Source of the DNA: a virus
Taxonomy: Duplodnaviria; Caudoviricetes
IMG/VR virus record: IMGVR_UViG_3300030330_004405
Span: 28,525 to 92,524 of that record
Length of the DNA stretch: 64,000 nucleotides
Direction: 5' to 3' (one strand)
Shown here: positions 17,551 to 64,000 of the stretch, piece by piece
How the letters are laid out: the number at the start of each line of letters is the position of its first letter
How positions within the stretch are numbered: position 1 is the stretch's first letter
The notes under the pieces: model-generated
Database searches by the model: none
What the model was told of the DNA's origin: nothing
The model's input: only the letters and a program-made list of their open reading frames with translations
Position numbers and translations under genes: made by a program

Positions 17551-18696
17551 ATGGCTAAAGCGAAAGCAAAGGCAGGTCGTGTAAATATGCAAGACCTAAT
17601 GAAACTAGTAAATAAGAAAGCGGGTCAGAATGTGGCTCACGACTTAACAGGAGACAACCCGACTTCTGTTAAGGAATGGATTCCAACGGGATCACGTTGG
17701 TTGGATTCTATTATTTGTAAGGGTAAAGTTGCCGGTATTCCGGTTGGCAAGATCACCGAGATTGCCGGACTTGAAGCAACTGGTAAATCATACATGGCTG
17801 TGCAGATTGCAGCAAACGCCCAGAAAGCGGGCAAGATGGTCGTTTACTTCGATTCGGAGTCTGCCATCGACCCGATGTTCTTGGAGCGAGCAGGATGCGA
17901 CCTAGAGCGTTTAATGTACGTTCAAGCGTCTTCTGTGGAGTTTGTCCTTGAGACTATTGAAGAACTTCTTGGAGCAACCGACGAACAGCTTGTATTTATC
18001 TGGGATTCTTTGGCATTTACACCATCAATTTCAGATGTTGAAGGAGACTTCAACCCGCAGTCTTCAATGGCAGTGAAGGCTCGTATTTTAGCAAAGGGTA
18101 TGTCCAAGTTGGTTATTCCCATTGCTGATAAGCGCGCAACTTTCATTGTATTGAACCAATTGAAGACAAACATCCCACAAGGTCCGATGGCGCGACAAAT
18201 CGCTATGACTACACCTTATATCACCCCTGGTGGTAAGGCAATGCATTATGCTTATTCACTTCGTATTTGGTTGACCGGTCGAAAGGCTAAGTCAGCATTT
18301 ATCGAAGATGAAAAGGGTTTCCGTATTGGCTCCGAAGTTAAGGTAAAGCTTGAGAAATCCCGTTTTGGCACTCAAGGCAGGTCGTGTGCTTTCCGTATCA
18401 TGTGGGGGACTGAAGATGTTGGAATTCGTGATGAAGAATCGTGGTTCGATGCTATTAAGGGCTGCGAACACCTTTCATCAGCAGGAGCTTGGTATACACT
18501 GTCAATGCCCGACGGATATACTAAGAAGTTCCAACCTTCAAAATGGACGAGCCTTGTAACTTCAGACGAAGAGTTCAAGAACAGAGTAATTCAGATTATG
18601 GATGAAGAGATTGTGCAGAAGTTTGATAAGCGACAAGGCGATGCTAGCACTTATTACGAGGATCCGGAAGACATTTCGGTGCCAGTAAAAGAATAA
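17551..18696 (+). CDS. recA: RecA/UvsX recombinase
   Basis: IPTGSRWLD, Walker A GLEATGKS, FDSE, WDS, LNQL, TPGGKAM; upstream TTGACT promoter. Confidence 0.95.
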   Translation: MAKAKAKAGRVNMQDLMKLVNKKAGQNVAHDLTGDNPTSVKEWIPTGSRWLDSIICKGKVAGIPVGKITEIAGLEATGKSYMAVQIAANAQKAGKMVVYFDSESAIDPMFLERAGCDLERLMYVQASSVEFVLETIEELLGATDEQLVFIWDSLAFTPSISDVEGDFNPQSSMAVKARILAKGMSKLVIPIADKRATFIVLNQLKTNIPQGPMARQIAMTTPYITPGGKAMHYAYSLRIWLTGRKAKSAFIEDEKGFRIGSEVKVKLEKSRFGTQGRSCAFRIMWGTEDVGIRDEESWFDAIKGCEHLSSAGAWYTLSMPDGYTKKFQPSKWTSLVTSDEEFKNRVIQIMDEEIVQKFDKRQGDASTYYEDPEDISVPVKE

Positions 18697-19773: not shown

Positions 19774-21159
19774 TTGTCTAACAAACCAAGTTTCAGCAAA
19801 TACGGTAAAAGTTTCCAAGAGGATCTAGTACATCTTATCCTGGATGACCGACCGTTTGCAGACCAGATACTAGAAGTTCTAGATACTAACTTTTTGGAGC
19901 TTGAATACCTTAGACTGTTTACTTCTAAGATCGTTGATTACAGGGACCGGTACGCTAAACACCCATCACAACAAATCATCGACACAATTCTGCAGACCGA
20001 GCTTGAGAAAGAAGATAAAGTCCTTTCCCAGCAGATAACAGAATATTTTACCAAGATCCGCAATACTGAGGTCGATGGTTCTGAATACATCAAGGAGCAG
20101 TCTCTTGAATTCTGTCGAAAGCAGAACTTAAAAGAGGCTATGCTTAAATCAGTTGACCTTCTGCAGAATTGTTCTTTTGACGAGATCTCGAAGGTTATCA
20201 ACGAGTCCCTTAAGCTTGGTTCAGAGTCCAATTTTGGTCACGATTTCCTGGCAGATTTCGAAGAAAGATATAAGCCAAAGTTTCGTGGTCCTGTGACGAC
20301 CGGGTGGAAGCAGATTGATGATATGACTGGTGGGGGCTTAGGCAAATCTGAGCTTGGAGTGGTCGTTGCACCGACAGGTGCCGGCAAGTCAATGGTTTTA
20401 GTTCATCTCGGATCCAACGCAGTTATGGAAGGCAAGACTGTTGTTCATTACACTCTAGAACTTCAAGATACCGTTATTGGAAAGCGATATGATAGCTGTA
20501 TCACAGAATATCCCCTCTCTGAACTCTCAGTTTTTAAGGAAGAGATTTACGAAAAGATTAAAGATTTAGACGGTAGATTAATTGTTAAAGAATATCCTAC
20601 AAAATCAGCCTCAACTGGTACAATCAGAAATCACTTAAACAAGCTAATCAAAAGAGGTATCGAGCCAGGTATGATTATTGTGGATTATGCAGATCTTCTC
20701 AAACCACTGGTAGTGCGCAAAGAGAAGCGAAATGAGCTTGAATCTATCTACGAAGAATTACGCGCCATCTCGCAAGAGTTTGGTTGCCCTATATGGACTG
20801 CATCACAGACTAACCGCTCCGGTTTGAATGCAGAGGTGATCACAATGGAGCAAATTTCTGAAGCATTTAATAAATGCTTTGTTGCAGACTTCATCTTCTC
20901 TGTCTCACGAACAATCGACGACAAGCAGAATAACACTGGGAAAATTTTCATAGCCAAGAACAGAAATGGACCCGATGGGATGGTCTATGATATATTTATG
21001 GATACCTCTAACGTTAAGATTAGAGTATTGCCAAAAACAAACGCAGTCACAGCCACAGCAGCCAATGCAGTGGTAACAAGTCCGGTGGCGTTAACACCGA
21101 AAATGCAGAGAACTTACTTACAATCGAAGTATCAAAAATTTAAAGGAACATCAAAATGA
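19774..21159 (+). CDS. Replicative DnaB-like helicase (gp41-like)
   Basis: Walker A APTGAGKS, YTLEL, IIVDYADL, TASQTNR, KNRNG. Confidence 0.92.
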   Translation: MSNKPSFSKYGKSFQEDLVHLILDDRPFADQILEVLDTNFLELEYLRLFTSKIVDYRDRYAKHPSQQIIDTILQTELEKEDKVLSQQITEYFTKIRNTEVDGSEYIKEQSLEFCRKQNLKEAMLKSVDLLQNCSFDEISKVINESLKLGSESNFGHDFLADFEERYKPKFRGPVTTGWKQIDDMTGGGLGKSELGVVVAPTGAGKSMVLVHLGSNAVMEGKTVVHYTLELQDTVIGKRYDSCITEYPLSELSVFKEEIYEKIKDLDGRLIVKEYPTKSASTGTIRNHLNKLIKRGIEPGMIIVDYADLLKPLVVRKEKRNELESIYEELRAISQEFGCPIWTASQTNRSGLNAEVITMEQISEAFNKCFVADFIFSVSRTIDDKQNNTGKIFIAKNRNGPDGMVYDIFMDTSNVKIRVLPKTNAVTATAANAVVTSPVALTPKMQRTYLQSKYQKFKGTSK

Positions 21160-41403: not shown

Positions 41404-42987
41404 ATGAGTCGCGAATACGACAACAATCAATCGCTACAACAAAAGATTATGAATGGCGTGAATGTCCTAGCTGATAATGTGGCATCCACGCTTGGACCCC
41501 GCGGTAGAAATGTTCTGCTGCAAGAGAAAGGAAAGGCACCTTTCGTTACGAAAGACGGAGTGACTGTAGCACACTTCGTAGCCTTGGAAGATCCAATCGA
41601 GAATGCTGCTGTGCAAGTGGCTAGACAAGCTGCTATCGAAACCAACGAGACCGCTGGTGATGGCACAACCACGTCAACTATTCTTGCGAGAGCAATCTTA
41701 CAAGAATCACAAAAGCACATTGCTGCTGGTGCTGCGCCTATTGAACTTCAACGAGGCATCGCCAATACGGTCAAGGAGATATGCAACAAGCTATCAGAGC
41801 AATCAACACCGGTTACGAGCATCGAAGATATTAAGCACATTGCAACTATCTCAGCTAATAACGACTCGACCATCGGTGACTTGGTAGCCATGGCTATCGA
41901 CAAGGTTGGGCAAGATGGCTCAATCACCATCGAAGAATCTCGTTCGCTGGACACGTCTATTGATATTGAGGAAGGGTTTAAGGTGCCGTCTGGTGTCGCT
42001 GCCTCTGCCTTTATCACAGATGAGCGGCGCTCAGTTATGTCGTATGATGAACCGCTTATCCTTGTGACAGATCACAAGATTGATGCTGTTGAGCCTATCT
42101 TACCGATTCTGGAAATGATTGCGAGAGAGGGTCGTCCTTTGATTATCGTAGCCGAAGAGGTTGAAGGACAAGCGCTGGCTGCTCTCATCATGAATGCTAT
42201 GCGTGGCACGCTCAAGGTCGCTGCCATCAAGGCTCCGTTCTACGGTAATGAGCGCCGAGACACACTAAATGACTTGGCTGCTTCTGTTGGCGCTACCTTT
42301 GTCACAAGAGAGTCCGGAGTCAAGCTAAATGATGTGCAACTTAAGCACTTGGGCTCTGCCAAGAGCGTAGAAGGCAACAAGTATGTCACTACCTTCGTGG
42401 GCGGTAATGCGGACTTCGAAGAGATTGAAAAAAGAATTGAATCCCTCAAGAGTGACATTAAAAGCTGCGATGATATGCAGGCAGCCGAACTTATGCAAGG
42501 TAGAATTGTCAGACTGGTTTCCGGTGTTGCAGTCATTAAGGTTGGCGGCGCTACACAAGTCGAAATGATCGAAAAGAAACACAGAGTAGAGGATGCGCTT
42601 GAGGCTGTTCGCTCTGCTCAAGATGAAGGCATTGTAGGTGGAGGGGGCACAGCGCTTCTTAGAGCATCGCAAAACCTCGTGGTATCAACAACAGATCCAC
42701 ATGGCGATCAAGCCTATGGCGTGTCAATTGTAGTAAATGCTTGCAAAGCACCCATCACACAGATGGCACTTAACGCTGGTTTGTCACCTGACATTATTAT
42801 TGACAGAGTGTTGGGTGCTGCTAGCGGTAAAGGTTGGGATTTCAGAAATGATTGCTTGACCAACATGATAGAAAGTGGTATTATTGATCCTGTGAAGGTT
42901 ACCAAAACAGCATTGCAAAATGCGTCGAGCTGTGCCGGCACTTTGATCACCACTAATTATGGCATCATACAAACGGAGGCAGAATGA
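41404..42987 (+). CDS. groEL: Chaperonin GroEL
   Basis: TLGPRGRNV, TKDGVTVA, AGDGTTT, GGGTALL, GIIDPVKV; TTGACA-17-TATAAT upstream. Confidence 0.97.
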   Translation: MSREYDNNQSLQQKIMNGVNVLADNVASTLGPRGRNVLLQEKGKAPFVTKDGVTVAHFVALEDPIENAAVQVARQAAIETNETAGDGTTTSTILARAILQESQKHIAAGAAPIELQRGIANTVKEICNKLSEQSTPVTSIEDIKHIATISANNDSTIGDLVAMAIDKVGQDGSITIEESRSLDTSIDIEEGFKVPSGVAASAFITDERRSVMSYDEPLILVTDHKIDAVEPILPILEMIAREGRPLIIVAEEVEGQALAALIMNAMRGTLKVAAIKAPFYGNERRDTLNDLAASVGATFVTRESGVKLNDVQLKHLGSAKSVEGNKYVTTFVGGNADFEEIEKRIESLKSDIKSCDDMQAAELMQGRIVRLVSGVAVIKVGGATQVEMIEKKHRVEDALEAVRSAQDEGIVGGGGTALLRASQNLVVSTTDPHGDQAYGVSIVVNACKAPITQMALNAGLSPDIIIDRVLGAASGKGWDFRNDCLTNMIESGIIDPVKVTKTALQNASSCAGTLITTNYGIIQTEAE

Positions 42988-43190
42988 TGAACCAAGGAGA
43001 TCTAGTACATATCCCACAAGGCGTTGAACTTTGGTGCAAAAGAGACGGGAGGATGAAATTACGAATGACAGAAAAACCAACCGTGGGTGTTTATTTGAGT
43101 GGTACCAATCGCATTTATCAAGTTTATGCCAATGGTCATGAATGGAATCTTAAAAGAAGAGACGTATATCCAATGGAGGCAGTATGCTAG
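42984..43190 (+). CDS. Small hypothetical protein (GDLV-type N-terminus)
   Basis: NQGDLVHIP. Confidence 0.55.
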   Translation: MMNQGDLVHIPQGVELWCKRDGRMKLRMTEKPTVGVYLSGTNRIYQVYANGHEWNLKRRDVYPMEAVC

Positions 43191-54625: not shown

Positions 54626-54859
54626 ATGGAGTATAAAAAAGGCACTTTGATCAAGTGGGTAGAATCTCACAGATCTTATGAGGCGAATGGAGATGTGCTT
54701 GTTGGTTTGGAGCCTATTTACAAATGTGGAATAGTGATGGAAATATCTAAACAAGATCCAAAATACATAGCAGTTGCCTCTTGTACCGACGGGCGCTGGT
54801 ATGTCGTAAACATTCTCCATGATAGCATTGAAGTATTAAGTGAGGTAAGAAATGGCTAA
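54626..54859 (+). CDS. MKVGDLV-related mini-protein
   Basis: KKGTLIKW...GIVME...IEVLSE. Confidence 0.55.
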   Translation: MEYKKGTLIKWVESHRSYEANGDVLVGLEPIYKCGIVMEISKQDPKYIAVASCTDGRWYVVNILHDSIEVLSEVRNG

Positions 54860-55157
54860 CATATTTTTTAACGGTGAGAAAATGGACAAACAGACTGCCA
54901 TTAACTCACTTACAGTGGAGATTTCAAACTACTATGATGGTAGATATGAAGTTAAGACTGGGTCGGATGACGGGGGCTCTGTGCTTGAGGTGTTTGTGGA
55001 GGTTCCAACTCCCTCTCTTTCTGTGTTGGATCAGTGCCCTGATTTCCCGTTGTTTGAGATTATTCCAAAGTGGGGTGGCTGGCGCTGTCAGGTTGTTAAG
55101 GTGCCTCCAGGCTATATTGACGCTATCGTGCTAGCAGCCGAGATTCCAGACTACTGA
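54852..55157 (+). CDS. Hypothetical protein
   Basis: RBS GAGG; overlaps the previous gene. Confidence 0.55.
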   Translation: MANIFFNGEKMDKQTAINSLTVEISNYYDGRYEVKTGSDDGGSVLEVFVEVPTPSLSVLDQCPDFPLFEIIPKWGGWRCQVVKVPPGYIDAIVLAAEIPDY

Positions 55158-55207
55158 CATTTAGCTGACATTTGTGGCTTGACTTCTAATAGCGTAGAGT
55201 ATATATT
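55155..55207 (+). promoter_or_regulatory. Sigma70 promoter with tandem 11-bp-spaced TGACA boxes
   Basis: TGACA 55155 and 55166; TTGACT 55179-17-TATATT. Same layout at 61830 and 63322; variants at 59969 and 60327. Confidence 0.7.
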
Positions 55208-55885: not shown

Positions 55886-56122
55886 GTGCGGACTTTCGAC
55901 CCATATTTTAAGATAGGTGACTTTGTTAAGTGTTCTTATGATCGCTTCCCATATTTGTATGACTGGTATGAGGATGAAGAGATAGAATATGAGATTTATT
56001 ATGGTGTCGTTGTTTATGTTGATTCCGCACATCATGAATACTTGGACGACTATATTTATGAGGTTCTGTGTTTGGACGGACAGAAAAGATACTTCATCGA
56101 GCCCGAACTTTCTCGAATGTAA
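55886..56122 (+). CDS. MKVGDLV-related mini-protein
   Basis: FKIGDFVK...GVVV; ACTATTTA upstream. Confidence 0.55.
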   Translation: MRTFDPYFKIGDFVKCSYDRFPYLYDWYEDEEIEYEIYYGVVVYVDSAHHEYLDDYIYEVLCLDGQKRYFIEPELSRM

Positions 56123-56174
56123 TCATTGACAAATGACACCATTGTGTTATACTACTAGAAACATTAGGAGAAAC

Positions 56175-57350
56175 ATGTTTACTAGCTTACTACTTTCGCT
56201 GTGCCTTTCCGGCACTGCACACGCCGGATCGCTGAGTGCTTCGGACACATCTTATACAGGAGCGTCAATCTTGACGGGCGACATCGACGTGACGTTCGAG
56301 GACGTGATTGACATTAACGGAGAGGAAGGCACGTACCCGTATGCTTTCTTTGAGGGTAATACTCTGTACCTTGGTAACTCTGACATCCTTGACAACAGCA
56401 TTGATGCTATCGTCGAGTTCTTTTGGTTTGAGTCGTCCATCGACCGCGGCACCGATTTTTATGTTGCTGTGATTAAGACGCGCTCGACACCCGGAGACAA
56501 CTGCTACTATGCACCGTGGGATTGGGCACGGGGTTCAAACTGTAAGCTGTGGGCAGACGAGTGGAGTGACTTTGGTGAACATCCTGTTATCAGTGTTGAG
56601 GCGATGACCGATATTGAGCGAGAGCAAGGTGCTTTCCGATGGGACTGGTCCGTACCTTTTGAATCTTATGGGATCGATGCGTACAGCCAAGTCACGTTTG
56701 AGAACAAGTATGGCATTGGCTCCGACTCAGAAGGCGCAGCTATGATCCACGGAGAATACAAGCTGGACGAAGAAGGTTACGAAGTTGAAACAGAGGGAGA
56801 ACTTCAAGTCAAGGGCTATCACTCGTCAGAATATTCAGTTAACACACAGTACGAAGTCACGCTGTACGAGTGGGATGTGTATGTTGATGGTCGCGCAGAT
56901 TTGATGGCTTGGGATATGTACCTAAACCTGGGCGAGCGTGAGCGCCAGTCAGCATACCAAGAATATTTCCTGAGTATTCAAGTTGAAGAGGGCATGCCGT
57001 TTCGCATCGACAACTTAAACTTTCTCGCTAACTACGATATTGGTTGGTACGATCCGTTCCACTACGAACTTGGCGTGATGCTTAACGACGTTACGATTTC
57101 GCAGCCACTCTTTTTGCCACCTGAAGAAGAACCAGAGGGAGAGGAAGAGCGGGAAGAGAGAATCGTGCTTGAACAAGAGGACACGGGTGTTGAACATGAT
57201 ACTGGTGACGGAGATGAATCTGATACAGGTAAGATCAAGGCTACGTCCCCGAGCCCGAAGAATAGTGGATGCAACACCGTCGCTCGCGGGGGATTGTCGG
57301 CTGCGTTCTTGGCTGCTCTTTTGTTGGGTTTTCGCAGAAAAAACTCTTGA
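56175..57350 (+). CDS. Secreted acidic protein with a MYXO-CTERM-like C-terminal sorting signal
   Basis: Signal peptide ending TAHA; DTG-rich linker; SGCNTVARGGLSAAFLAALLLGFRRK; promoter TTGACA(56126)..TATACT. Confidence 0.7.
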   Translation: MFTSLLLSLCLSGTAHAGSLSASDTSYTGASILTGDIDVTFEDVIDINGEEGTYPYAFFEGNTLYLGNSDILDNSIDAIVEFFWFESSIDRGTDFYVAVIKTRSTPGDNCYYAPWDWARGSNCKLWADEWSDFGEHPVISVEAMTDIEREQGAFRWDWSVPFESYGIDAYSQVTFENKYGIGSDSEGAAMIHGEYKLDEEGYEVETEGELQVKGYHSSEYSVNTQYEVTLYEWDVYVDGRADLMAWDMYLNLGERERQSAYQEYFLSIQVEEGMPFRIDNLNFLANYDIGWYDPFHYELGVMLNDVTISQPLFLPPEEEPEGEEEREERIVLEQEDTGVEHDTGDGDESDTGKIKATSPSPKNSGCNTVARGGLSAAFLAALLLGFRRKNS

Positions 57351-57383
57351 CAGCCCACGCTGTAGCGGTTATAATCTAAGTAT

Positions 57384-57469
57384 GGCTGAATGGTGGAATT
57401 GGTATACACATCAGACTTAAAATCTGACGCCCTTTGGGCTTGCGGGTTCGAGTCCCGCTTCAGCTACCA
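57384..57469 (+). tRNA. tRNA-Leu(TAA)
   Basis: Acceptor GGCTGAA/TTCAGCT; TCAGA-CTTAAAA-TCTGA; variable arm; encoded CCA; TTGACA-17-TATAAT upstream. Confidence 0.95.
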
Positions 57470-57484
57470 TCTTTTACTTTTTGC

Positions 57485-57559
57485 GGGTTGTTAGCTCAAC
57501 GGTAGAGCACTTGGCTTTTAACCAATAGGTTCTGGGTTCGAATCCCAGACGACCCACCA
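57485..57559 (+). tRNA. tRNA-Lys(TTT)
   Basis: TTGG-CTTTTAA-CCAA; GGTTCGAATCC; CCA. Confidence 0.95.
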
Positions 57560-57564
57560 TTTCC

Positions 57565-57641
57565 GGGCTCTTAGCTCAGTTGGTCAGAGCACCCGGCTCA
57601 TAACCGGATGGTCCTGGGTTCGAGCCCCAGAGAGCCCACCA
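57565..57641 (+). tRNA. tRNA with CAT anticodon (probably Ile2; Met possible)
   Basis: CCGG-CTCATAA-CCGG; paired 1:72 and no GGG/CCC initiator stem; CCA. Confidence 0.9.
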
Positions 57642-57642
57642 C

Positions 57643-57719
57643 GGTCCCATCGTCTAGTCAGGTCAGGACACCGGGTTTTCATCCCGGCAACACGGGTTCG
57701 AATCCCGTTGGGACTACCA
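57643..57719 (+). tRNA. tRNA-Glu(TTC)
   Basis: CCGGG-TTTTCAT-CCCGG; CCA. Confidence 0.95.
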
Positions 57720-57734
57720 TTTACAGGAGGCACA

Positions 57735-57923
57735 ATGATTTACACAATCATCTATAAACTAAACAATCAGTTCAATACATTTACGTTTGCTACAAAGCAC
57801 GACAAGAAGGTTGCTTGGCGAGATTATGTTGAGAACTATGCGGAGAGTGGTGCAGAGCCAGTCGCCATGTATCCAGGCAATAACGTCATTTATTTTCAGA
57901 GAGATATTGATGAAACAAGCTAA
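57735..57923 (+). CDS. Hypothetical protein
   Basis: RBS AGGAGG after the tRNA cluster. Confidence 0.55.
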   Translation: MIYTIIYKLNNQFNTFTFATKHDKKVAWRDYVENYAESGAEPVAMYPGNNVIYFQRDIDETS

Positions 57924-58299
57924 GGTCAGAAGGCACACCGTTGGGTTCTTCCGCAATGACGCAGAGGTTCCGTTTATTAATCTTGAGATGTTTGAGACAA
58001 TCACAGCAGCTACCAGTATTCCACACTACTGGCGTGATAGTGAGGGCAAAGTATCTCAGTTCTGGCACAGCGGCGTTATCCCAAAAGGCACTGGCGTTGT
58101 GTGTACTCACCGCGAACGTGGAATGAAGCATACTTTCTGGACCGTCACTGATCCTGAAAGCGAACATATCGGCAAGGTGTTCATTGTCGGACATACGTTT
58201 AAGGATCGCAAGGAAGATGAGTTTGAGAAGTTTGAGTATTCCAACATCTCACCTACGCTAAAATATTCGATTTTGGCTGAAAAGCCATTGACAAAGTAA
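57910..58299 (+). CDS. Hypothetical protein
   Basis: Overlapping start; 129 aa. Confidence 0.55.
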   Translation: MKQAKVRRHTVGFFRNDAEVPFINLEMFETITAATSIPHYWRDSEGKVSQFWHSGVIPKGTGVVCTHRERGMKHTFWTVTDPESEHIGKVFIVGHTFKDRKEDEFEKFEYSNISPTLKYSILAEKPLTK

Positions 58300-58324
58300 T
58301 CGAGAGCGATTATAATATCTATAT

Positions 58325-58401
58325 GCGCCAGTAGCTCAGTTGGATAGAGCATCGGCCTTCTAAGCCGAGGGTCATAGGTTCGAGTCCTATCTGGCGTGCC
58401 A
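58325..58401 (+). tRNA. tRNA-Arg(TCT)
   Basis: TCGGC-CTTCTAA-GCCGA; CCA; promoter TTGACA(58288)-17-TATAAT. Confidence 0.95.
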
Positions 58402-58404
58402 TAT

Positions 58405-58480
58405 GCGGGCGTAACTCAGTGGTAAGAGTAGTCGTCTTATATGCGATTGGTCGCTGGTTCAAATCCAGCCGCCCGTACCA
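58405..58480 (+). tRNA. tRNA-Ile(TAT)
   Basis: GTCGT-CTTATAT-GCGAT; acceptor GCGGGCG/CGCCCGT; GGTTCAAATCC; CCA. Confidence 0.85.
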
Positions 58481-58504
58481 TTCACAACTAACAAAGGAAA
58501 CAAA

Positions 58505-58690
58505 ATGTCATATCACGATGGAATACCCCCGCAATACAGCACCACTGGAATAGGAGTTGTTAACCCACTCAGGCAGATCGAGAGAAAGCTAAAAAAGATT
58601 CAAGACGTTCTTGATGATATTTCAGAAGGCTCTGCTCTTTCGGCTAATGAACTTAAAGCACAGTTGTTGAAAGTGATTGACGATGGTTAA
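58505..58690 (+). CDS. Hypothetical protein
   Basis: RBS AAGGA. Confidence 0.5.
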   Translation: MSYHDGIPPQYSTTGIGVVNPLRQIERKLKKIQDVLDDISEGSALSANELKAQLLKVIDDG

Positions 58691-58892
58691 GGTTGGCTCG
58701 CTTGTGAGATATATCCCCAGTGCGTCAGCAACATTCAAGTGGGAAGAGTATGTCAAGACTGAGGGGCGCGATCCGGGCATTGTTTTGCGAGAGATTGATG
58801 AAAAGGGCACGACCACCAGACGGTTTGAAGTCAGGTGGCAGAATGGTAAAGTAACAGAAGAATGGATTTCATTTTTGGAGGTTTTTGAATGA
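58683..58892 (+). CDS. MKVGDLV-family mini-protein
   Basis: VKVGSLVRY...GIVL...VRW...FLEV. Confidence 0.65.
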   Translation: MVKVGSLVRYIPSASATFKWEEYVKTEGRDPGIVLREIDEKGTTTRRFEVRWQNGKVTEEWISFLEVFE

Positions 58893-59155
58893 ACATGTTA
58901 ACCACATTTGTTTTGATGGGAGTTATTGACTCGCACGACGGAGTTTTTGCTACGGTTGAACTAAATACTAATCCAGCATCCAACGGAGGACCGGCAACAG
59001 CAGTTATGCCGGTGACAGCTTTTCCGTGTGAGATCAGAGAAGGTAAAGTATTTTTTGTAGTAAAGATGCACGAAGATCAGGATGCTGAGATCATTTGCCA
59101 AGAGGAAGAAAAGAATGAAAACCAACCAGACCCCCCTGACTCGTGCATGCATTGA
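58889..59155 (+). CDS. Hypothetical protein
   Basis: ATGA overlap; SD GGAGG lies inside the previous gene's LEV codons. Confidence 0.55.
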   Translation: MNMLTTFVLMGVIDSHDGVFATVELNTNPASNGGPATAVMPVTAFPCEIREGKVFFVVKMHEDQDAEIICQEEEKNENQPDPPDSCMH

Positions 59156-59294
59156 ATCTCACTTGAGAATGATAGCATATCATAGAAGGCAAATCATTGA
59201 ACTATCACGACGAGATATTGATGAGTCTGATGTTTGTATGGAGTGTTTTGATTTTGAGATTATAAATGAAAGTGGGCGATCTCGTAAGGATTAG
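59115..59294 (+). CDS. Hypothetical protein
   Basis: Short ORF with RBS GAGG. Confidence 0.4.
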   Translation: MKTNQTPLTRACIESHLRMIAYHRRQIIELSRRDIDESDVCMECFDFEIINESGRSRKD

Positions 59295-59451
59295 GCACGA
59301 TGAGCATCTTTGGCTTGGTCACGGTATCATTCTAGAACTACGTGGCAGAGACAGACCCCATTATGCAAAAGTTAGATGGTTTGATCAGTGGGATGAGCAA
59401 GAGTTTGAGTGGGAAGTTATTTCTGCGTTGGAGGTTATAAGTGAATCATAA
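59266..59451 (+). CDS. MKVGDLV-family mini-protein
   Basis: MKVGDLVR...GIIL...VRW...LEVISES. Confidence 0.7.
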   Translation: MKVGDLVRIRHDEHLWLGHGIILELRGRDRPHYAKVRWFDQWDEQEFEWEVISALEVISES

Positions 59452-59465
59452 GGAGAGACAACATT

Positions 59466-59810
59466 ATGGCGGATAAAGTATATTATGATGAAAGTTGCTA
59501 CGTCTGTTCACTAGAGATTAATGCTGTGCGACGACGCGGAGAAGCCTGCGGTATCGAGTTCGTTGATATTAGTGCTGATGACTTTGATGGCAATGTAAAA
59601 GATTTCGAGAAAGAAATGATTGGCTGGTTCGATCAGAAAGCTACCAAAGGACCAGAGACTTTTAGGCTCATGTATGATAAGATGGGTTTTCATAAGTCTG
59701 TTTGGTTTTCTCGATTGCCTGTTATTCGCACGGTGTTCAACGCGGGCTATTATATTTTTGCTTATGGTATCCGCCCATGTCTACCGAGGAAAAAGAATGA
59801 AGGTAGGTGA
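59466..59810 (+). CDS. DCC1/DUF393-like thiol-disulfide oxidoreductase
   Basis: VYYDESCYVC (DxxCxxC), IEFVDIS, Y..FA..R. Confidence 0.75.
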   Translation: MADKVYYDESCYVCSLEINAVRRRGEACGIEFVDISADDFDGNVKDFEKEMIGWFDQKATKGPETFRLMYDKMGFHKSVWFSRLPVIRTVFNAGYYIFAYGIRPCLPRKKNEGR

Positions 59811-59982
59811 TCTAATATCATTCAAGCCGATTAACTTTGGATTAGAGGACTGGTCGAATCCGTCTATTGTTATGCACGAATACGAAAGCCCCAACGAAGG
59901 ACTATGGACTATTTGGTGTGATGGGGTGTTTTGCGTTATAGACGATGAAAACTATGAGATTGTGTACTTGACAAGTTCTTGA
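59797..59982 (+). CDS. MKVGDLV-family mini-protein
   Basis: MKVGDLISF. Confidence 0.6.
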   Translation: MKVGDLISFKPINFGLEDWSNPSIVMHEYESPNEGLWTIWCDGVFCVIDDENYEIVYLTSS

Positions 59983-60030
59983 CTTGACGGCGATTCTCAG
60001 CGGTGCTATATTATATTCATAGGAGCAAGC

Positions 60031-60123
60031 ATGGGTTTTGTAGTTGACACGTTGATGAAAGCAGTATTCATCTATATTGGTTATTATGGCTTTAGAGCAC
60101 TTGCTTGGATCGTGCTTCAATGA
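60031..60123 (+). CDS. 30-aa hydrophobic peptide
   Basis: First ORF after a promoter; RBS AGGAG; MGFVVDTLMKAVFIYIGYYGFRALAWIVLQ; ATGA overlap with the next gene. Confidence 0.55.
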   Translation: MGFVVDTLMKAVFIYIGYYGFRALAWIVLQ

Positions 60124-60329
60124 AGATTGGTGATTTGGTAAAATGGGAAAACGTCGACGTTTTCGAAAACGTCTTGAATGATAGTATGGATCACTATCGC
60201 ACGGACTATGGGGTTGTTATCAAGATGTCAAGAACAGGACACACAACACATTCGGCACAAGTTCTGTTCAACGATGGTGAGCTGGCTTGGTTCGACACAC
60301 AGCAACTTAGAGTTGTCAGCTCCCGTTGA
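60120..60329 (+). CDS. MKVGDLV-family mini-protein
   Basis: MKIGDLVKW...GVVI...LRVVS. Confidence 0.7.
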   Translation: MKIGDLVKWENVDVFENVLNDSMDHYRTDYGVVIKMSRTGHTTHSAQVLFNDGELAWFDTQQLRVVSSR

Positions 60330-60390
60330 CATTTCCTTGACTTGACTCTTGGTCCGGTCAGTGTTATCTTATAAATGTAAGGAGGAAGAA

Positions 60391-60594
60391 ATGGATTGGC
60401 CACAATGTTTTGAGTGCGGTGAAGAGTTCAACCCTAAGCGCAAGGCGCTGGGCTATGAGTATTGTTTGGAGTGTGGTGAGAACCACGCGCACGAAGTATC
60501 TGAGCGTATGAAGAAATGCACAGCACCACTTTATAACAAGGGTGCTTATCAATATGTAGGAAGCGTGCAAGATGCACGATGGGCAGGTAGATAA
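60391..60594 (+). CDS. C4 zinc-finger protein (DksA/TraR-like finger)
   Basis: CFECGEEFNPKRKALGYEYCLEC; RBS AGGAGG. Confidence 0.55.
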   Translation: MDWPQCFECGEEFNPKRKALGYEYCLECGENHAHEVSERMKKCTAPLYNKGAYQYVGSVQDARWAGR

Positions 60595-60935
60595 TGATGA
60601 AAGTTTGGGCTATGCAAGGAAACTATCAGGGTGAAATGTTTTCGTCGGTTCATCTTACACAGAAGGGTTGTGCGCTGGCGTGTATCGCTGATGTGTTAGA
60701 GTTCTTGGAAGTTGGCGATAAGGAAACCGCGCTTGACGCTATGAACAGCTATTACGCTTACACTGAGACTGATGGAGAGCAAACTGAACCATTTGAGTGG
60801 GACTTGGAAAAGATGAAGAGTATGAGCAGTGATGATCTTTGGAAGATTTTTTCTGACTGGACTAATCACTGTTGGGAGATGATGGCTGACCAAAGTTATA
60901 ACATTTACGGACGCCCAATGGAGGTTCAAGCATGA
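60594..60935 (+). CDS. Hypothetical protein
   Basis: TAATG coupling. Confidence 0.6.
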   Translation: MMKVWAMQGNYQGEMFSSVHLTQKGCALACIADVLEFLEVGDKETALDAMNSYYAYTETDGEQTEPFEWDLEKMKSMSSDDLWKIFSDWTNHCWEMMADQSYNIYGRPMEVQA

Positions 60936-61114
60936 AGAGAGGTAGTTTGGTCAGAAACCGACACGACGGACATCGAGGCATTGTGATGGAGGTTGGTCCG
61001 AAAGAGACACAAACCGATCATGGTAAACAATGCGCGCGTATCCAGTGGTTTGACGGATACGAAACTATTGAGTTCATTAAAGTATTGGAGGTGATTAGTG
61101 AATCTACAAGTTAA
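60932..61114 (+). CDS. MKVGDLV-family mini-protein
   Basis: MKRGSLVR...GIVM...IQW...LEVISE. Confidence 0.7.
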   Translation: MKRGSLVRNRHDGHRGIVMEVGPKETQTDHGKQCARIQWFDGYETIEFIKVLEVISESTS

Positions 61115-61201
61115 AGCTATGGAGTGTTTTATTGTTACAACGAGCACTTTTGGTATTATAGCTACGATCGCATATCTTTTGGCGACCGCTGGGGGTCTGA
61201 C

Positions 61202-61495
61202 GTGAAGGTTGGTGATCTGGTTACGCTTTCATCATACTGTCTGCAACGAGCAGACATGTATACATGGAGACAAAAGATTTGGTTTGATAAGAAGCCGTTA
61301 GTTGGTTTGGTTGTGAGGGTTGAGGACAACCCTTGGCAGAGTAAAAGAAAAGTTTCGGCTAACGAGAAAACATTTTACTATGTTAAGTGGGTACAAGAAG
61401 GTCCAGGCAGCCGCTACGGCAGAACTTATCACAAGACCGACGGCTATTTTCTCAGGAATGACTTAAAGTTTGTAAAGAAAGGAGATTTCAAATGA
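61202..61495 (+). CDS. MKVGDLV-family protein (longer variant)
   Basis: GTG start (M)KVGDLVTL...GLVV...VKW. Confidence 0.65.
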   Translation: MKVGDLVTLSSYCLQRADMYTWRQKIWFDKKPLVGLVVRVEDNPWQSKRKVSANEKTFYYVKWVQEGPGSRYGRTYHKTDGYFLRNDLKFVKKGDFK

Positions 61496-61839
61496 GTAAT
61501 GTAAATGAGTTTTTTAACGAAGTTGGGAGCCGCCGAAACAAGATGGTGGTTTGCGCATCCGGCTTCAAGATGAGTGTACAAGCTCACAATGGCGCGTACT
61601 GTTCGCCGGGTATAGACAACGCAGAAAAGTACACCCACGTTGAGATTGGTTTCCCAAGCCAAAAAGAAGAGTTGCTAATGGAATGGTGTGAGGAAGTTAA
61701 CAATCCGACTGAAACGGTCTACGGTTACGTTCCTGTACACGTTGTTAATACGGTGTTGGCAAAGCACGGCGGTATTGTCGAAGGTGAAGTGCCGCGCGGA
61801 GTTGCTCCGATTCCAGCAAAGTTTACCGCTGACATTTAG
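61492..61839 (+). CDS. Conserved phage hypothetical protein
   Basis: VCASGFKMSVQA...YCSP...VEIGFPS...VYGYVP. Confidence 0.65.
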   Translation: MSNVNEFFNEVGSRRNKMVVCASGFKMSVQAHNGAYCSPGIDNAEKYTHVEIGFPSQKEELLMEWCEEVNNPTETVYGYVPVHVVNTVLAKHGGIVEGEVPRGVAPIPAKFTADI

Positions 61840-61908
61840 TTGACAACTTTGGGTTGCATTATGTATCAGAAAGGGGTATATTATAAGAGTAGAGAGGAGT
61901 TCATACAC

Positions 61909-62283
61909 ATGGGTTATCGTTCAGAAGTTATCTTGGCAGTCGGACCAGAGGTTATGCCTCAGTTTATGGTCACAATGGCAAAGTCGCCACAAGCACGTGA
62001 GTTGTGTTGGGCAGACCACGATGAGATGATTAGAGACTACAACGACGAGAAGGGAGCGTTCCTATTCCGTTGGAGTGGTATCAAGTGGTACGATAGTTAC
62101 GAATGTGTAGCCGCCCTCCAAGATTTTTTGGATTGGTGTGAGAGCGAGCGGATTGAAGTCGAGGGCGAGGAAGTTGATGCGTGTGAGTTTTATCGCTTTA
62201 TCCGCATCGGTGAAGAGATGGACGACAATGAGGTCCAAGGGTGGGGATTTGATATTCACATCGAGAGAAACATAACGTATTAA
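61909..62283 (+). CDS. Conserved phage hypothetical protein
   Basis: MGYRSEV...KWY...FIRIGEE; RBS AGGAG. Confidence 0.65.
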   Translation: MGYRSEVILAVGPEVMPQFMVTMAKSPQARELCWADHDEMIRDYNDEKGAFLFRWSGIKWYDSYECVAALQDFLDWCESERIEVEGEEVDACEFYRFIRIGEEMDDNEVQGWGFDIHIERNITY

Positions 62284-62361
62284 CACCAGCCCGATCGCGC
62301 GATTTTTTCGCGCCATTTTTTCTCGACCTAAAAATCTTTTTAAGCAAACAAGGAAAGCACA

Positions 62362-62640
62362 ATGAAAATGACAATCGTTTTAGACTCGGAGGACCGTGAA
62401 GGCATCAACGACGCACTAAAGATGGTGCGTATCATGCATGAAAAGTATTCGGGAAACGTCACGTATCACAAAGAATCGTTCGGCAAGATTGAGTTCATCA
62501 AGCTGCTTCGCAAGTACATGCGTGAGTCCATCGAACACATGAAGAACGAAGACTCTGGACAAGTGCAAGACATTGATGACTTGCCAAACCTTCGCAACGC
62601 AAAGCGATTTGCTGACCGCATCTTTTCGGGTGAGCGATGA
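62362..62640 (+). CDS. Hypothetical protein
   Basis: RBS AAGGA; KIEFIKLLR...LRNAK. Confidence 0.55.
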   Translation: MKMTIVLDSEDREGINDALKMVRIMHEKYSGNVTYHKESFGKIEFIKLLRKYMRESIEHMKNEDSGQVQDIDDLPNLRNAKRFADRIFSGER

Positions 62641-62831
62641 GTACCCGACCAAAAATAGGCGATCTGGTGAAGATGCGAACCCATGAAACGGGATTGGTCG
62701 GCATAGTTGTCGATAAGCATCCGAAAATCCCAAGTGCGTCACCCTTACAGTTTGGTATTATGTGGACCGGAGGTTCAGGGAAGCTGGACTGGGAGCCGGA
62801 GGCTTGGCTGGAGGTAGTGAGCAGTGTTTAA
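62637..62831 (+). CDS. MKVGDLV-family mini-protein
   Basis: PKIGDLVK...GIVV...W...WLEVVS. Confidence 0.7.
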   Translation: MSTRPKIGDLVKMRTHETGLVGIVVDKHPKIPSASPLQFGIMWTGGSGKLDWEPEAWLEVVSSV

Positions 62832-63012
62832 GTTTATCACAAATCTACTAGTTAAGAGCAGGCAATCAAAGATTCGCAAACTCATAAGCCAGAAGCAAAC
62901 ACAAGCCGTACAACTGCAAAGAAACGGCAAACTGAGAGAATATGCCGAGGTTATGAAAGAGATTGATGACCTTGAAGATGAATACGAGGGTATAACTAAT
63001 GAGACTGTATAG
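62824..63012 (+). CDS. Small helical protein
   Basis: AVQLQRNGKLREYA. Confidence 0.5.
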   Translation: MFKFITNLLVKSRQSKIRKLISQKQTQAVQLQRNGKLREYAEVMKEIDDLEDEYEGITNETV

Positions 63013-63316
63013 ATGGGCTAAAGATAGGATAAGCCATAAGCTATCACACCTCAAGCTCGAAAACATCAAGCGCACACTCCGCGAGAATGGGCTCGCGCTC
63101 GTCGTTATCATTGTAGGCTGGGAAATCATCGAGGACGTTCTATTTCCGGCGCTCTTCGCGCTGCTCGGCAAGTACGTACACCCGGCTTTCTTTGCCGGTA
63201 TACCTGCGGCATGGCTTATCTGCCTTCACTGGTTAGCGGTTCCGATTCTATGGGGCTTGTGGGTAAAGATCAAAGGCACCGATGAAAAGATCGAGCATAG
63301 CTGCGACCATCATTGA
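62999..63316 (+). CDS. Membrane protein
   Basis: Two to three hydrophobic segments. Confidence 0.6.
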   Translation: MRLYRWAKDRISHKLSHLKLENIKRTLRENGLALVVIIVGWEIIEDVLFPALFALLGKYVHPAFFAGIPAAWLICLHWLAVPILWGLWVKIKGTDEKIEHSCDHH

Positions 63317-63396
63317 GCACTTGACACCTACTTGACAAGAAAAAACTTGCCGTAACCGCTTCGCGGTGTTATCTTATATGTATAAGGAGAAAAAAT

Positions 63397-63561
63397 ATGA
63401 CTAAAGTTGGAGATTTGGTTAGAGTTCGCACAAAACACCACGGCGACAAGCTGGGTGTTGTTGTCGAGGTGACGAAGGATGGCGTTTACGTCAAGCCACA
63501 AAAGCATCCGAACAACATCCTCGCGCTTCATCAAGATGTCAAAGTGTTGGTAAGTGTATGA
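63397..63561 (+). CDS. MKVGDLV-family mini-protein (54 aa, not in ORF track)
   Basis: MTKVGDLVRVR...GVVVEV; RBS AAGGAG. Confidence 0.7.
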   Translation: MTKVGDLVRVRTKHHGDKLGVVVEVTKDGVYVKPQKHPNNILALHQDVKVLVSV

Positions 63562-63719
63562 AAGTCGGTGATTTGGTACGACACAGGTTCTCTGAGTCTG
63601 GTATGCTTGGGATCGTGATCAAGAAGGGAGTTAGCGACAAGTGGTATATCTCTTGGAATGATGGGCGAAATAGCTGGACTGTTCGATCGTTGTTTGAGGC
63701 TGTTGATGAAGGTGGGTGA
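63558..63719 (+). CDS. MKVGDLV-family mini-protein (53 aa, not in ORF track)
   Basis: MKVGDLVRHR...GIVI...ISW. Confidence 0.7.
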   Translation: MKVGDLVRHRFSESGMLGIVIKKGVSDKWYISWNDGRNSWTVRSLFEAVDEGG

Positions 63720-63882
63720 TCTGGTGACGATGCCGGGTTGTCTTGGCTTCGGAACGCCAACCGGCATCATCGTCGAGACTAACCGGGGCAGACCCAATCG
63801 TGTTCAAGTTTATTGGTTTCGAGAGGCAGAGACATCATGGGAGCCAAAGAAATGGCTGGAGGTAGCTAGTGCAAGTAGGTGA
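63706..63882 (+). CDS. MKVGDLV-family mini-protein
   Basis: MKVGDLVTM...GIIV...VYW...WLEVAS. Confidence 0.7.
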   Translation: MKVGDLVTMPGCLGFGTPTGIIVETNRGRPNRVQVYWFREAETSWEPKKWLEVASASR

Positions 63883-64000
63883 CATTGTAAAACACAAGTA
63901 TGGAACACTGATGGGTTCCGGTATTATACTGTACCTGAGAGATTTGGGTCCGTCGAGAGGCTGGGCACGTATAGCGTGGACCGCCCATAATCAGACAAAG
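63869..64000 (+). CDS. MKVGDLV-family mini-protein (3'-truncated by the window)
   Basis: GTG start (M)QVGDIVKH...GIIL...IAW. Confidence 0.6.
   Translation, partial: MQVGDIVKHKYGTLMGSGIILYLRDLGPSRGWARIAWTAHNQTK

Follow-up and report, generated by a model that had tools for sequence, protein, structure and literature searches.

The window, which is the whole stretch of 64,000 nucleotides analysed here, belongs to a 92.5-kb viral contig that terminates within an array of mini-genes. Thirteen open reading frames (ORFs) of 53-97 aa form one protein family, all of them on the + strand in the final 9.4 kb of the contig. Eleven lie in 58683-64000, and two more start at 54626 and 55886. Their alignment runs from an MKVGDLV start through GIV and VxW to a terminal LEV. 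A profile built from the 11 and compared with all 1507 ORFs, delimited stop to stop, of the 92.5-kb contig recovered the 13 and no others, with the next best ORF at E 0.64. In leave-one-out profile searches (Z = 1507), nine of the 13 members were found at E = 1e-13 to 3e-3. The remaining four were weaker, namely 59797 (0.15), 61202 (0.028), 54626 (0.015), and 55886 (0.02), and each of them is detected at E <= 0.01 by a 138-sequence profile. The weak member at 59797 also has clear orthologues and an SH3-like model.

An earlier note on this DNA had listed 11 ORFs in the array and three outliers, and had proposed a family profile as a check. All 11 were found on the + strand at the starts it assigned, with the shared pattern aligning, and the search returned one family that takes in the outliers at 54626 and 55886, which match both the contig profile and the 138-sequence profile. 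The likeness it saw among the start regions is borne out as well, with six starts belonging to a single 21-nt repeat family (D2). The third outlier, at 42984, was not recovered by the family profile (E 8.4) despite its GDLV motif. The members and the features between them are as follows, with leave-one-out E values.

54626..54859, + strand: member Fa, outlying, 77 aa (E 0.015; 138-sequence profile match); syntenic orthologues in the related loci L062, L063, and L068 at 42-58% identity
55886..56122, + strand: member Fb, outlying, 78 aa, net charge -11 (E 0.02; profile match); orthologues in L062 and L068
58683..58892, + strand: member F1, 69 aa (E 1e-4); its LEV codons supply GGAGG ahead of the next gene's ATG at 58889, with an ATGA overlap
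59266..59451, + strand: member F2, 61 aa, AlphaFold-modelled (E 1e-13)
59428..59445, + strand: left half of a split coupling joint at the F2 end, GGAGG plus a relic GTG start (sequence reading)
59466..59810, + strand: DCC1-like thiol-disulfide oxidoreductase gene within the F2-F3 joint (Pfam PF04134, E 2e-12)
59797..59982, + strand: member F3, 61 aa (orthogroup alignment; model pLDDT 82.4); begins with a 14-nt overlap, and its YLTSS tail overlaps the -35 boxes of a predicted promoter
59968..60012, + strand: promoter connector after F3, repeated TTGAC boxes and then TATATT (promoter scan 10/12; repeats D15 and D8)
60120..60329, + strand: member F4, 69 aa (E 3e-10); ATGA overlap with an upstream 30-aa ORF
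60326..60390, + strand: promoter connector after F4 (promoter scan; repeats D10 and D15); second copy at 63366-63395
60932..61114, + strand: member F5, 60 aa (E 6e-8); its tail is a standard joint to the GTG at 61098
61098..61205, + strand: putative 35-aa hydrophobic ORF, non-family, starting at the start codon of the F5 joint
61202..61495, + strand: member F6, 97 aa, with long loop insertions and net charge +10 (E 0.028); GTGA overlap; orthologues in related loci at 44-69% identity
62637..62831, + strand: member F7, 64 aa (E 2e-8); LEV-codon GGAGG before the GTG at 62824
63310..63396, + strand: promoter connector and AAGGAG ribosome site ahead of the tandem F8-F11 (sequence reading; repeat D10)
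63397..63561, + strand: member F8, 54 aa, the most KOW-like sequence (E 1e-4; KOW6 E 0.027, below cut-off)
63558..63719, + strand: member F9, 53 aa (E 2e-7); ATGA overlap with F8
63695..63726, + strand: F9-F10 coupling joint, 14-nt overlap, with the stop TGA inside the F10 Gly-Asp codons
63706..63882, + strand: member F10, 58 aa (E 3e-7)
63856..63889, + strand: standard coupling joint between F10 and F11; alignment to the close relative L093 runs out at 63864
63869..64000, + strand: member F11, truncated by the contig end (E 3e-3); orthologue in L065 at 93% identity

Fold, distribution, and selection

A search of 1.8 billion representatives gave 698 clusters of relatives at E <= 1e-3, which with few exceptions are 52-75 aa long, from marine metagenomes, and unnamed. 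Related loci carry 3-29 copies each, every copy on the + strand, and related phages of ~190-200 kb hold up to 29 copies within 15 kb. Across these loci, 534 distinct members were gathered, with a median length of 63 aa. They fall into 298 orthogroups, of which 220 are singletons and some are common to up to 13 loci, while only seven recent within-locus duplicates were seen.

The earlier note proposed an SH3/KOW-like scaffold, and the AlphaFold models of two members, F2 and F3, support such a small beta-barrel, both being five-stranded and SH3-like (KOW/Tudor/chromo-like). The F2 model (pLDDT 89.8) matches the Spt5 KOW domain best, with Z 8.4 and an rmsd of 2.4 over 57 residues. Next in rank come PsaE, NdhS, NusG-KOW, and the Tudor and chromo-barrel domains. 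For models of this kind a Z of 7-8 is the usual best-match level, and the assignment holds at the superfold level only. The model of F3, the most divergent member, matches these folds too, of SH3/Tudor type, with Z no higher than 5.5. A Foldseek search with the F2 model gave zero matches at E < 1e-3, and a Pfam search of the family gave none at threshold. Matches to KOW, PcrA_UvrD_tudor, and CarD_TRCF_RID all stayed below the Pfam cut-off, those to PHROG were weak, and weak profile matches pointed to a chromodomain (E 0.008), a designed SH3 (0.037), and NusG KOW (0.2). Only the barrel core is conserved between paralogues, with GDLV in the first strand followed by GIV, VxW, DG, and LEV. Variation in the loops and at exposed positions is almost unrestricted (entropy ~4 bits outside the core), loop insertions reach 21 aa, and net charge spans -11 to +10, with 32% of members at <= -3.

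Judging from substitution rates, each paralogue is under purifying selection (dN/dS ~0.1-0.2), so that the cores diverge between paralogues but do not evolve fast. Against L093, dN/dS is 0.09, compared to 0.11 for the neighbouring genes; pooled clade-wide it is 0.22, and no pair exceeds 1. The “hypervariable cores” of the earlier note are thus a fair description of differences between paralogues and a wrong one if taken to mean fast evolution, the orthologues being conserved. The low dN/dS and the orthogroups common to up to 13 loci are unlike an arms race.

A dual-coding joint and the exchange of cassettes

The conserved ends of these genes amount to one dual-coding joint of ~35 nt. The upstream gene ends in L-E-V-I-S/N-E-S-R-stop, the L-E-V codons read TGGAGG and form a ribosome-binding site 6 nt ahead of the next start, and the M-K-V-G-D codons of the next gene share 14 nt with the upstream tail, which places the TGA stop inside GGT-GAT. 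That 5' end also contains a TGA in the other frame, as ATGA, and whichever of the two alternative frames an upstream gene uses, it therefore stops over the next start. The 14-nt overlap precedes the upstream stop in 274 of the 534 members, and in 214 of these the upstream gene is itself a family member; a further 105 members have a 4-nt overlap. In the window, the full 14-nt form is seen in 3 of 13 members and ATGA in 5 of 13, which makes this array more interleaved with unrelated genes than several relatives. The claim that TGGAGGT acts as a Shine-Dalgarno site was right, by direct reading, at all four places named: the spacing from GGAGG is 7 nt to ATG 58889, 6 to GTG 61098, 9 to GTG 62824, and 6 to GTG 63869.

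Synonymous codons in the joint are strongly biased. GGT encodes the conserved Gly in 93% of members and in 222 of 222 of the 14-nt class, against a background of 30%. Near the start codon, GTC reaches 64% (background 19%) and AAA 81% (background 50%), and the Glu of LEV is GAG 226 times and GAA 26 times (p ~1e-48). When a tail contains GGAGG, a start lies downstream in 151 of 155 cases, with a spacer of 6 in 133. The preference for GAG and GGT and the pairing of GGAGG with a start show selection on the joint at the nucleotide level. The GGT/GTC/AAA bias is also present in members that overlap nothing (GGT 69-89% vs 30% background). These patterns support the earlier view of the genes as self-coupling cassettes whose ends likely act as a translational-coupling joint. 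Ribosomes would re-initiate at every joint, allowing the whole chain to be translated from one early transcript.

A close relative is L093, which is collinear with 57626-63864 at 88-93% nucleotide identity and differs by only three changes. It lacks the 352-nt DCC gene insert, which sits exactly inside the F2-F3 joint of the window; the alignment breaks precisely at 59445, the joint is intact in L062 and L093, and the DCC1-like gene is absent from L093 and from 12 related loci. It has an additional 48-aa cassette between F8 and F9 with the start motif on either side, and in place of the joint after F10 it has a promoter connector and other cassettes. All three differences are cassette-level and located at joints. 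Across the clade, 66% of similarity-block ends fall <=15 nt from a cassette boundary versus 25% expected (p 7e-14), although these breakpoints are not fully independent of one another. Gene order is shuffled among relatives, and 13 islands of one or two cassettes at 85-99% identity occur in otherwise dissimilar arrays. These comparisons of relatives, on which joint recombination rests, support the gain, loss, or swapping of whole genes at the joints, much as the earlier note had supposed when it held that the conserved ends permit shuffling, and such a comparison among related phages was a check that the note itself had suggested. Selection alone would favour whole-gene insertions and deletions, and similarity tends to end at gene boundaries if the neighbours are non-orthologous.

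The best explanation as a whole, to which a probability of about 0.65 is given, combines diverged SH3-like cassettes, dual-coding joints, and cassette exchange. The array region would be part of a variable, host-promoter-driven gene block in an uncultured marine myovirus-like phage of ~190-200 kb, and the family would consist of old, strongly diverged paralogues of free-standing small SH3-like barrel proteins. The repeated joints and promoter connectors (D8, D10, and D15 in the window) would serve as short homologies for general recombination, through which whole genes would be added, removed, or exchanged while expression stays intact. As for function, the predicted sigma70-like promoters of the region (two match the consensus 12/12), the small size, and the variable loops and charges tentatively suggest early-expressed proteins that may bind different host or phage partners, a reading judged less likely than not. 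This context is also all that speaks for the binder library of the earlier note, with its speculative role in anti-defence or host takeover.

Alternative readings

It is somewhat unlikely that the joint is kept only for dual coding and translation coupling, and is not a preferred recombination site, with illegitimate or random recombination striking anywhere and selection sparing only the gain or loss of whole genes. The overlaps of 14 and 4 nt leave no intergenic DNA, so any viable insertion or deletion ends near a boundary; overlap coding and the ribosome site fully account for the codon bias; and the joint homology is short (~20-35 nt) and degenerate. However, the extra L093 cassette lies between two copies of the 18-nt start motif and the DCC insert is bounded by matching half-joints, the pattern that exchange between repeats leaves behind. 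Single cassettes at 90-99% nucleotide identity also occupy different array positions in diverged phages, the codon bias stays in the non-overlapping members, and the phage has its own UvsX-like recombinase (17551-18693). That the cassettes are mainly selfish hitch-hikers, spreading between co-infecting phages via the joint with little benefit to the phage, appears improbable. Their patchy distribution (220 of 298 orthogroups are singletons), the high-identity islands between diverged arrays, and the copy number of 3-29 per locus would fit, but purifying selection is as strong as on the neighbouring genes, many orthogroups are retained in 9-13 related loci, and the cassettes encode no nuclease or other mobility function.

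The proteins could instead be regulators of the KOW, Tudor, or CarD-RID type directed at nucleic acids, RNA polymerase, or the ribosome. The top structural matches (Spt5/NusG KOW, UvrD/PcrA Tudor, and CarD) all dock on RNA polymerase or the ribosome, the weak Pfam matches name the same domains, and the genes have an early-promoter context. This is nonetheless unlikely, with zero Pfam matches at cut-off and with an unconserved non-core surface and a wide range of charge that misfit one shared nucleic-acid or polymerase surface; the presence of 13-29 stable paralogues in each genome speaks for many partners. It is very improbable that the diversity comes from a dedicated machine, whether a diversity-generating retroelement or an integron-type integrase working on the conserved ends. 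The likeness is superficial only, in that small cassettes with constant ends and differing cores stand in arrays. Paralogues differ at nearly all positions rather than in a template-defined subset, and orthologues are stable. Neither a reverse transcriptase (RVT_1) nor a tyrosine integrase was found in the contig or in four complete relatives, where positive controls were detected.

Comparison with known systems

Small barrels of the SH3 fold (KOW, Tudor, chromo-barrel, PsaE/NdhS) resemble the family in having ~55-60 residues, five strands, and a GD-x-V first strand, with structural matches at Z 6-8.4. Unlike the curated SH3-fold families, whose thresholds it does not reach, this family is free-standing, phage-encoded, and massively paralogous. 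The SH3-fold small beta-barrels have been surveyed (bioRxiv 10.1101/140376), and a paper on chromo-like domains (PMC5906684) is silent on any phage family.

In the hyperplastic regions of T4-type phages, the promoter-early stem-loop (PeSL) cassettes recombine between repeats, so that close relatives come to differ by the insertion, deletion, or replacement of whole genes (Arbiol et al. 2010, PMC2839356; Comeau et al. 2014, PMC4122927). Both systems place short repeated regulatory sequences around small, mostly uncharacterised early genes in a variable region, and repeated promoter connectors are also present in the window. PeSL is a non-coding promoter and terminator and links unrelated ORFans, whereas the main repeat of the window is coding sequence that acts in translation, with a stop, a ribosome site, and a start across two overlapping reading frames, and it links paralogues of one protein family. 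The phage is also not a standard T4-type phage because it has a DnaE-type polymerase.

Integron arrays share with the window small promoterless cassettes arranged head-to-tail, an upstream promoter, and cassette gain, loss, and reordering. Integrons require a tyrosine integrase and attC sites; searches of the contig and the four complete relatives turned up no integrase, and the joint is without attC-like structure. Exchange in the window presumably proceeds by general homologous recombination. Stop-start overlaps that couple translation (ATGA, TGATG) are known in bacterial and phage operons, and the joint is like them in that termination occurs at or beside the next start and the ribosome site lies inside the upstream gene. 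Unlike ordinary overlaps of this kind, one 14-nt overlap recurs hundreds of times in the clade with its spacing unchanged, and it dictates five residues at the end of one protein and five at the beginning of the next.

The family and its fold

The window covers the final 64 kb of an IMG/VR contig of 92.5 kb, whose completeness is estimated at 49%, and every gene of the contig lies on the plus strand. The gene content includes a tail sheath, a class II ribonucleotide reductase, a DnaE-type polymerase and GroEL. The closest cultured relatives are distant (GroEL at most 44% identical, DnaE at most 31%), and a megablast search of positions 56000-64000 matched only a tRNA. The phage is predicted to encode its own machinery for homologous recombination, namely a UvsX-like recombinase and a DnaB-like helicase.

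Features of the window
17551-18693, plus strand: UvsX-like (RecA-family) recombinase (phrog_97, E 3e-60)
19774-21159, plus strand: DnaB-like helicase
54626 and 55886 (starts), plus strand: two upstream members of the mini-gene family
57384-58480: six tRNAs in two clusters (Leu-TAA, Lys-TTT, Met/Ile2-CAT, Glu-TTC, Arg-TCT, Ile-TAT)
58683, 59266, 59797, 60120, 60932, 61202, 62637, 63397, 63558, 63706, 63869 (starts), plus strand: mini-genes F1 to F11
59968, 60326, 63310: repeated promoter connectors

A sigma70 promoter matching the consensus at 12 of 12 positions stands ahead of each tRNA cluster (57347, 58288). In marine runs, the read depth spikes at the tRNAs, since tRNA-like sequence is common to other organisms.

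Downstream of the tRNAs, the eleven small ORFs listed by the earlier note are all present, as are the two upstream. Their alignment bears out the shared pattern of MKVGDLV, GIV, VxW and LEV, together with one invariant Gly. When a profile of the 13 members was run against the 1507 ORFs of the whole contig, exactly these 13 were recovered, and the next match had an E value of 0.64. The ORF at 42984, which the note had counted as an outlying member, scored E 8.4 in this search and is therefore not a demonstrable member. This 68-aa ORF (42984-43187) directly follows GroEL, carries a GDLV motif and is possibly a small barrel too. With leave-one-out profiles, nine members were significant and four (59797, 61202, 54626 and 55886) borderline, and all four were found by a larger profile. 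Unrelated small genes are interleaved with the family, including a glutaredoxin-like gene, a DCC1-like oxidoreductase, a zinc-ribbon and several orphans. The only pure tandem run is F8 to F11, from 63397 to the contig end, which falls inside F11.

Upstream of the tRNAs, at 56133-57350, lies a gene whose 405-aa product has a signal peptide, an acidic domain rich in aromatic residues and a Glu-rich stalk. Its C-terminal Gly-Gly/hydrophobic/RRK tail resembles a sorting signal of the GlyGly-CTERM or MYXO-CTERM type; searches of NCBIfam (sorting-signal models) and Pfam gave no match.

The family is widespread in marine viral sequence. Searched with a family profile, 1.8 billion representative proteins yielded 698 clusters at E ≤ 1e-3, nearly all of them unnamed proteins of 52-75 aa from marine metagenomes. 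The large proteins among the profile matches (titin-like Ig repeats, a MopE-repeat protein and a 517-aa low-complexity repeat) were set aside as spurious multi-repeat hits. On related IMG/VR contigs, a locus of up to 20 kb holds 3-29 copies, always on the gene strand, and the arrays are clustered in four complete relatives (187-204 kb). Two of these relatives, G003 and G004, are represented by contigs cut inside the cassette array, with 19 and 27 copies. Their “direct terminal repeats,” which would place the array at the genome ends, are identical 119-bp overlaps that look like circular-assembly artefacts, so nothing is concluded about genome ends. Among cultured phages the family was not found (50,697 phage records, tblastn with F2 and F4 as queries). 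Three family copies each occur in a Halobacteriovorax MAG (PBIO01000025.1, 4684-5522) and a Micrococcales MAG; these are probably binned phage DNA rather than bacterial homologues and are not usable as a host clue. A few metagenomic proteins, such as P0045 (177 aa) and P0036 (143 aa), are true in-frame fusions of two family domains, which means that a cassette can also evolve into a tandem-domain protein.

Named families are approached only from a distance. No Pfam model reached its cut-off for any family member. The best KOW match was KOW6_SPT5 to F8, scoring 14.4 bits where the cut-off is 27, and the KOW models, SPT5 variants included, were matched by only one or two of 138 members, all under cut-off. 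The Pfam Chromo model matched one of the 138 (E 0.018), and the family profile met the cpSRP43 chromodomains at E 0.008; at the sequence level, the W-x-(D)G and WEP-like motifs look like those of the chromo core. DUF2158 and DUF1918 matched just three to four of 138 members, under cut-off (E ≥ 0.002), and DUF2158 had no match in the contig at E ≤ 10. Two PHROG families with no annotated function, phrog_2827 and phrog_1690, were matched by seven and five of the 138 members with E down to 1e-5 to 8e-7 (1e-4 and 6e-3 for window members), and may be distant kin at best. Nearest in the ESM Atlas are clusters of unnamed viral proteins; the named leads, DsrB, DfrB, SH3-C_UBE2O, Tsr0524-like, DUF4314 and NifZ, all score below 0.9 and are leads only, to other small SH3-like families. 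A literature search on the motif and on small-barrel families found no description of this one.

The fold is better defined than the sequence kinship. F2 was modelled with AlphaFold2 from a 138-sequence alignment, giving five strands at a pLDDT of 89.8, and models were compared with known structures by Foldseek and VIA-align. The best match was an Spt5 KOW domain (Z 8.4, rmsd 2.4, 57 residues), followed at Z 6-7.4 by PsaE, NdhS, NusG-KOW, UBE2O-SH3, Tudor and chromo-barrel. There were 125 chains at Z ≥ 5, and the top matches all belong to the SH3-like small beta-barrel superfold, taken here as five antiparallel strands that close into a small barrel some 55-70 residues long. F3, whose sequence fits the family least well, was modelled with an alignment of its own orthogroup (pLDDT 82.4) and gave the same fold list at Z ≤ 5.5, which argues that the members share a fold. 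The SH3/KOW-like scaffold proposed earlier thus agrees with both models, and the family is predicted to be an SH3-like small beta-barrel (KOW/Tudor/chromo-like), at the level of the superfold only. A fold search of BFVD returned only uncharacterised phage proteins. Across 534 members, column entropy is near its maximum except at the core motifs and the tail, and insertions concentrate in the loops between strands 1-2, 2-3 and 3-4 (up to 21, 15 and 13 aa, respectively). The net charge of the window members ranges from -11 to +10.

A joint read in two frames

At the sequence level, the conserved ends of the family are one dual-coding joint. Joint statistics were taken over 534 distinct members. 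In 274 of them, the start precedes the stop of the upstream ORF by exactly 14 nt, and that ORF is itself a family member in 214 cases; another 105 start in a 4-nt ATGA overlap. The consensus joint is TGGAGGTnATnA(A/G)TGAAAGTCGGTGATTTGGTA. Its upstream frame reads L-E-V-I-S/N-E-S-R-stop and its downstream frame M-K-V-G-D-L-V, with the upstream stop TGA lying within GGT-GAT. The 5' end of the downstream gene holds a TGA in the other frame as well (ATGA), and because both alternative frames are closed in this way, just two overlap classes dominate. In the window, three joints are of the 14-nt type (F3, F10, F11) and five of the ATGA type (F4, F5, F6, F7, F9).

Codon choice follows the joint. Synonymous choice at codons 2-7 is strongly biased (AAA 81%; GTC 64% against a background of 19%; GGT 93% against 30%) because the start overlaps the upstream ORF. 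The bias is weaker yet kept in members without any overlap, with GGT at 89% and 69% in the two other classes. On the upstream side, the Glu codon of LEV is GAG in 226 cases and GAA in 26 (background 46% GAG), and the Leu codon is YTG in 80%. GGAGG tails are followed by a start codon in 151 of 155 cases, with a 6-nt spacer in 133. The GGAGG within the LEV codons is thus a predicted ribosome site backed by codon choice, and all four instances of TGGAGGT that the earlier note had read in this way were found directly in the window. Since the ISESR tail lies outside the barrel, its conservation is ascribed to the joint rather than to the protein. Programmed frameshifting there seems unlikely: the consensus holds no slippery heptamer and has a ribosome site and a start codon instead.

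A second type of connector is a repeated promoter, made of doubled TTGAC boxes, then TATATT or TATCTTATA, then AAGGAG. Doubled or tripled TTGAC/CTGACA boxes lie upstream of the -10 in the predicted early promoters at 59968-59988, 60326-60346, 63310-63335, 55154-55181 and 61829-61856. In the F3 orthogroup, the -35 boxes are encoded within a conserved C-terminal YLTSS-stop.

Turnover of cassettes

Orthologues of window paralogues occur in relatives (F3 at 74-87% identity, F7 at 60-73%, F8 at about 70%, F11 at 93%), in a different order. The closest comparison is with the metagenome contig L093, which aligns collinearly with 57626-63864 (88-93% nucleotide identity) and has exactly three differences. 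The DCC1-like insert (59446-59797) is absent from L093, where an intact standard joint links F2 to F3; the same intact joint is seen in the related locus L062, and the window retains both half-joints flanking the insert. This gene, a thiol-disulfide oxidoreductase (59466-59810; Pfam E 2e-12), is found in this phage only, among the loci compared. Between F8 and F9, L093 has an extra 48-aa family cassette with the start motif on both sides. After F10, it has a promoter connector instead of a coupling joint, then two other cassettes, and a cassette sharing only its first nine residues with F11. All three differences are changes of whole cassettes and are bounded by joints or connectors; breakpoints at the conserved ends were what the earlier note proposed to look for among related phages.

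The same is seen across the clade. Using HSPs of at least 85% identity and with duplicate contigs removed, 76 block ends fell within family-gene stretches. Of these, 66% lay within 15 nt of a cassette boundary compared to 25% expected (p 7e-14), with the caveats that the ends partly depend on one another and that selection prefers changes of whole genes. Thirteen blocks consist of one or two cassettes, 85-99% identical, within otherwise dissimilar arrays, some at different array positions.

Pieces of the stretch are also seen, short and at 99-100% identity, in contigs from four marine runs. Logan contigs from three independent marine runs share breaks at 59251-59280 (F2 start), 61466-61471 (F6 end) and 63338-63357 (promoter connector), consistent with assembly-graph branching at repeated joints or with strain variants. 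Candidate junctions in contigs of the four runs have only 21-39 matching letters per side, probably represent repeated motifs or other phages, and were rejected.

Neither a reverse transcriptase (RVT_1) nor a tyrosine integrase (PF00589; control positive in 14 of 14 genomes) was found in this contig or the four complete relatives. The likely agent of cassette exchange is therefore general homologous recombination, and the phage has a UvsX-like enzyme.

The proteins are under purifying selection. With the first seven and last eight codons left out, the family cores compared to L093 give pS 0.34, pN 0.04 and dN/dS 0.09, and the interleaved non-family genes give dN/dS 0.11. Clade-wide, 54 ungapped orthologue pairs have a pooled dN/dS of 0.22 (median 0.17, none above 1). 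Only seven pairs within a locus are more than 50% identical, and 220 of the 298 orthogroups have a single member, so the family is old and diverse. Each paralogue is a stable protein, with the repertoire changing via cassette turnover and not by rapid point mutation.

Possible roles and known systems

Consensus sigma70-like promoters, small genes and a variable region fit early expression that would depend on the host RNA polymerase. The conserved scaffold, the variable loops and charges, and the many stable paralogues suggest a putative set of binders with different partners, a reading given a chance of about one in three. Two other readings are weaker: that the proteins are KOW/Tudor-like regulators, in keeping with the top structural matches and with KOW models that stay under cut-off, or that the cassettes are selfish.

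Most small early phage genes are orphans and hard to study. Here, about 700 marine viral protein clusters reduce to one scaffold, and the genetic grammar is clear. If the joint both couples translation and serves as a handle for recombination, phages could reshuffle modules the size of a gene with no need for promoters, terminators or site-specific enzymes, and this dual role would tell how to recognise such arrays elsewhere. Being small, with confident predicted barrel models and naturally diversified loops, the proteins are attractive for binding screens, including those against defence systems. If they are binders, the family illustrates how binders evolve on one scaffold in nature. For now, the architecture and its testable predictions are what make the array valuable.

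At its broadest, the array could be a recombinase-independent viral counterpart of the integron. The joint of about 35 nt (stop, ribosome site, start and the first strand of the next protein) would have been selected as a universal connector, by which a clade of marine phages exchanges, inserts and deletes single genes while translation is kept. Each phage would assemble its own SH3-like putative mini-binders, each directed against a different host protein in early infection for takeover or counter-defence. This scenario is speculative and, taken whole, unlikely.

An integron cassette array has a tyrosine integrase (IntI) adjoining it and attC recombination sites; with no such integrase in this contig or the four complete relatives, an integron mechanism was rejected. 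A diversity-generating retroelement combines a reverse transcriptase with a template repeat and limits variation to template adenines, whereas here variation extends over nearly all non-core columns; with RVT_1 also missing from the same five sequences, this mechanism was rejected as well. The nearest described mechanism is the PeSL-mediated modular shuffling of T4-type phages, in which, according to two reports, the repeat is a sigma70-like promoter with a stem-loop terminator in non-coding DNA (PMC2839356; PMC4122927). As with PeSL, repeats delimit the insertions, deletions and replacements that distinguish close relatives (three of three against L093), and some of the repeats are promoters (59968, 60326, 63310). 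Unlike PeSL, the dominant repeat is a coding overlap of stop, ribosome site and start, and terminator-like sites are not above shuffle expectation (8 versus 7.8 expected). The cassette array would work like PeSL but is not a member of that class, because its main repeat is a coding translational joint.
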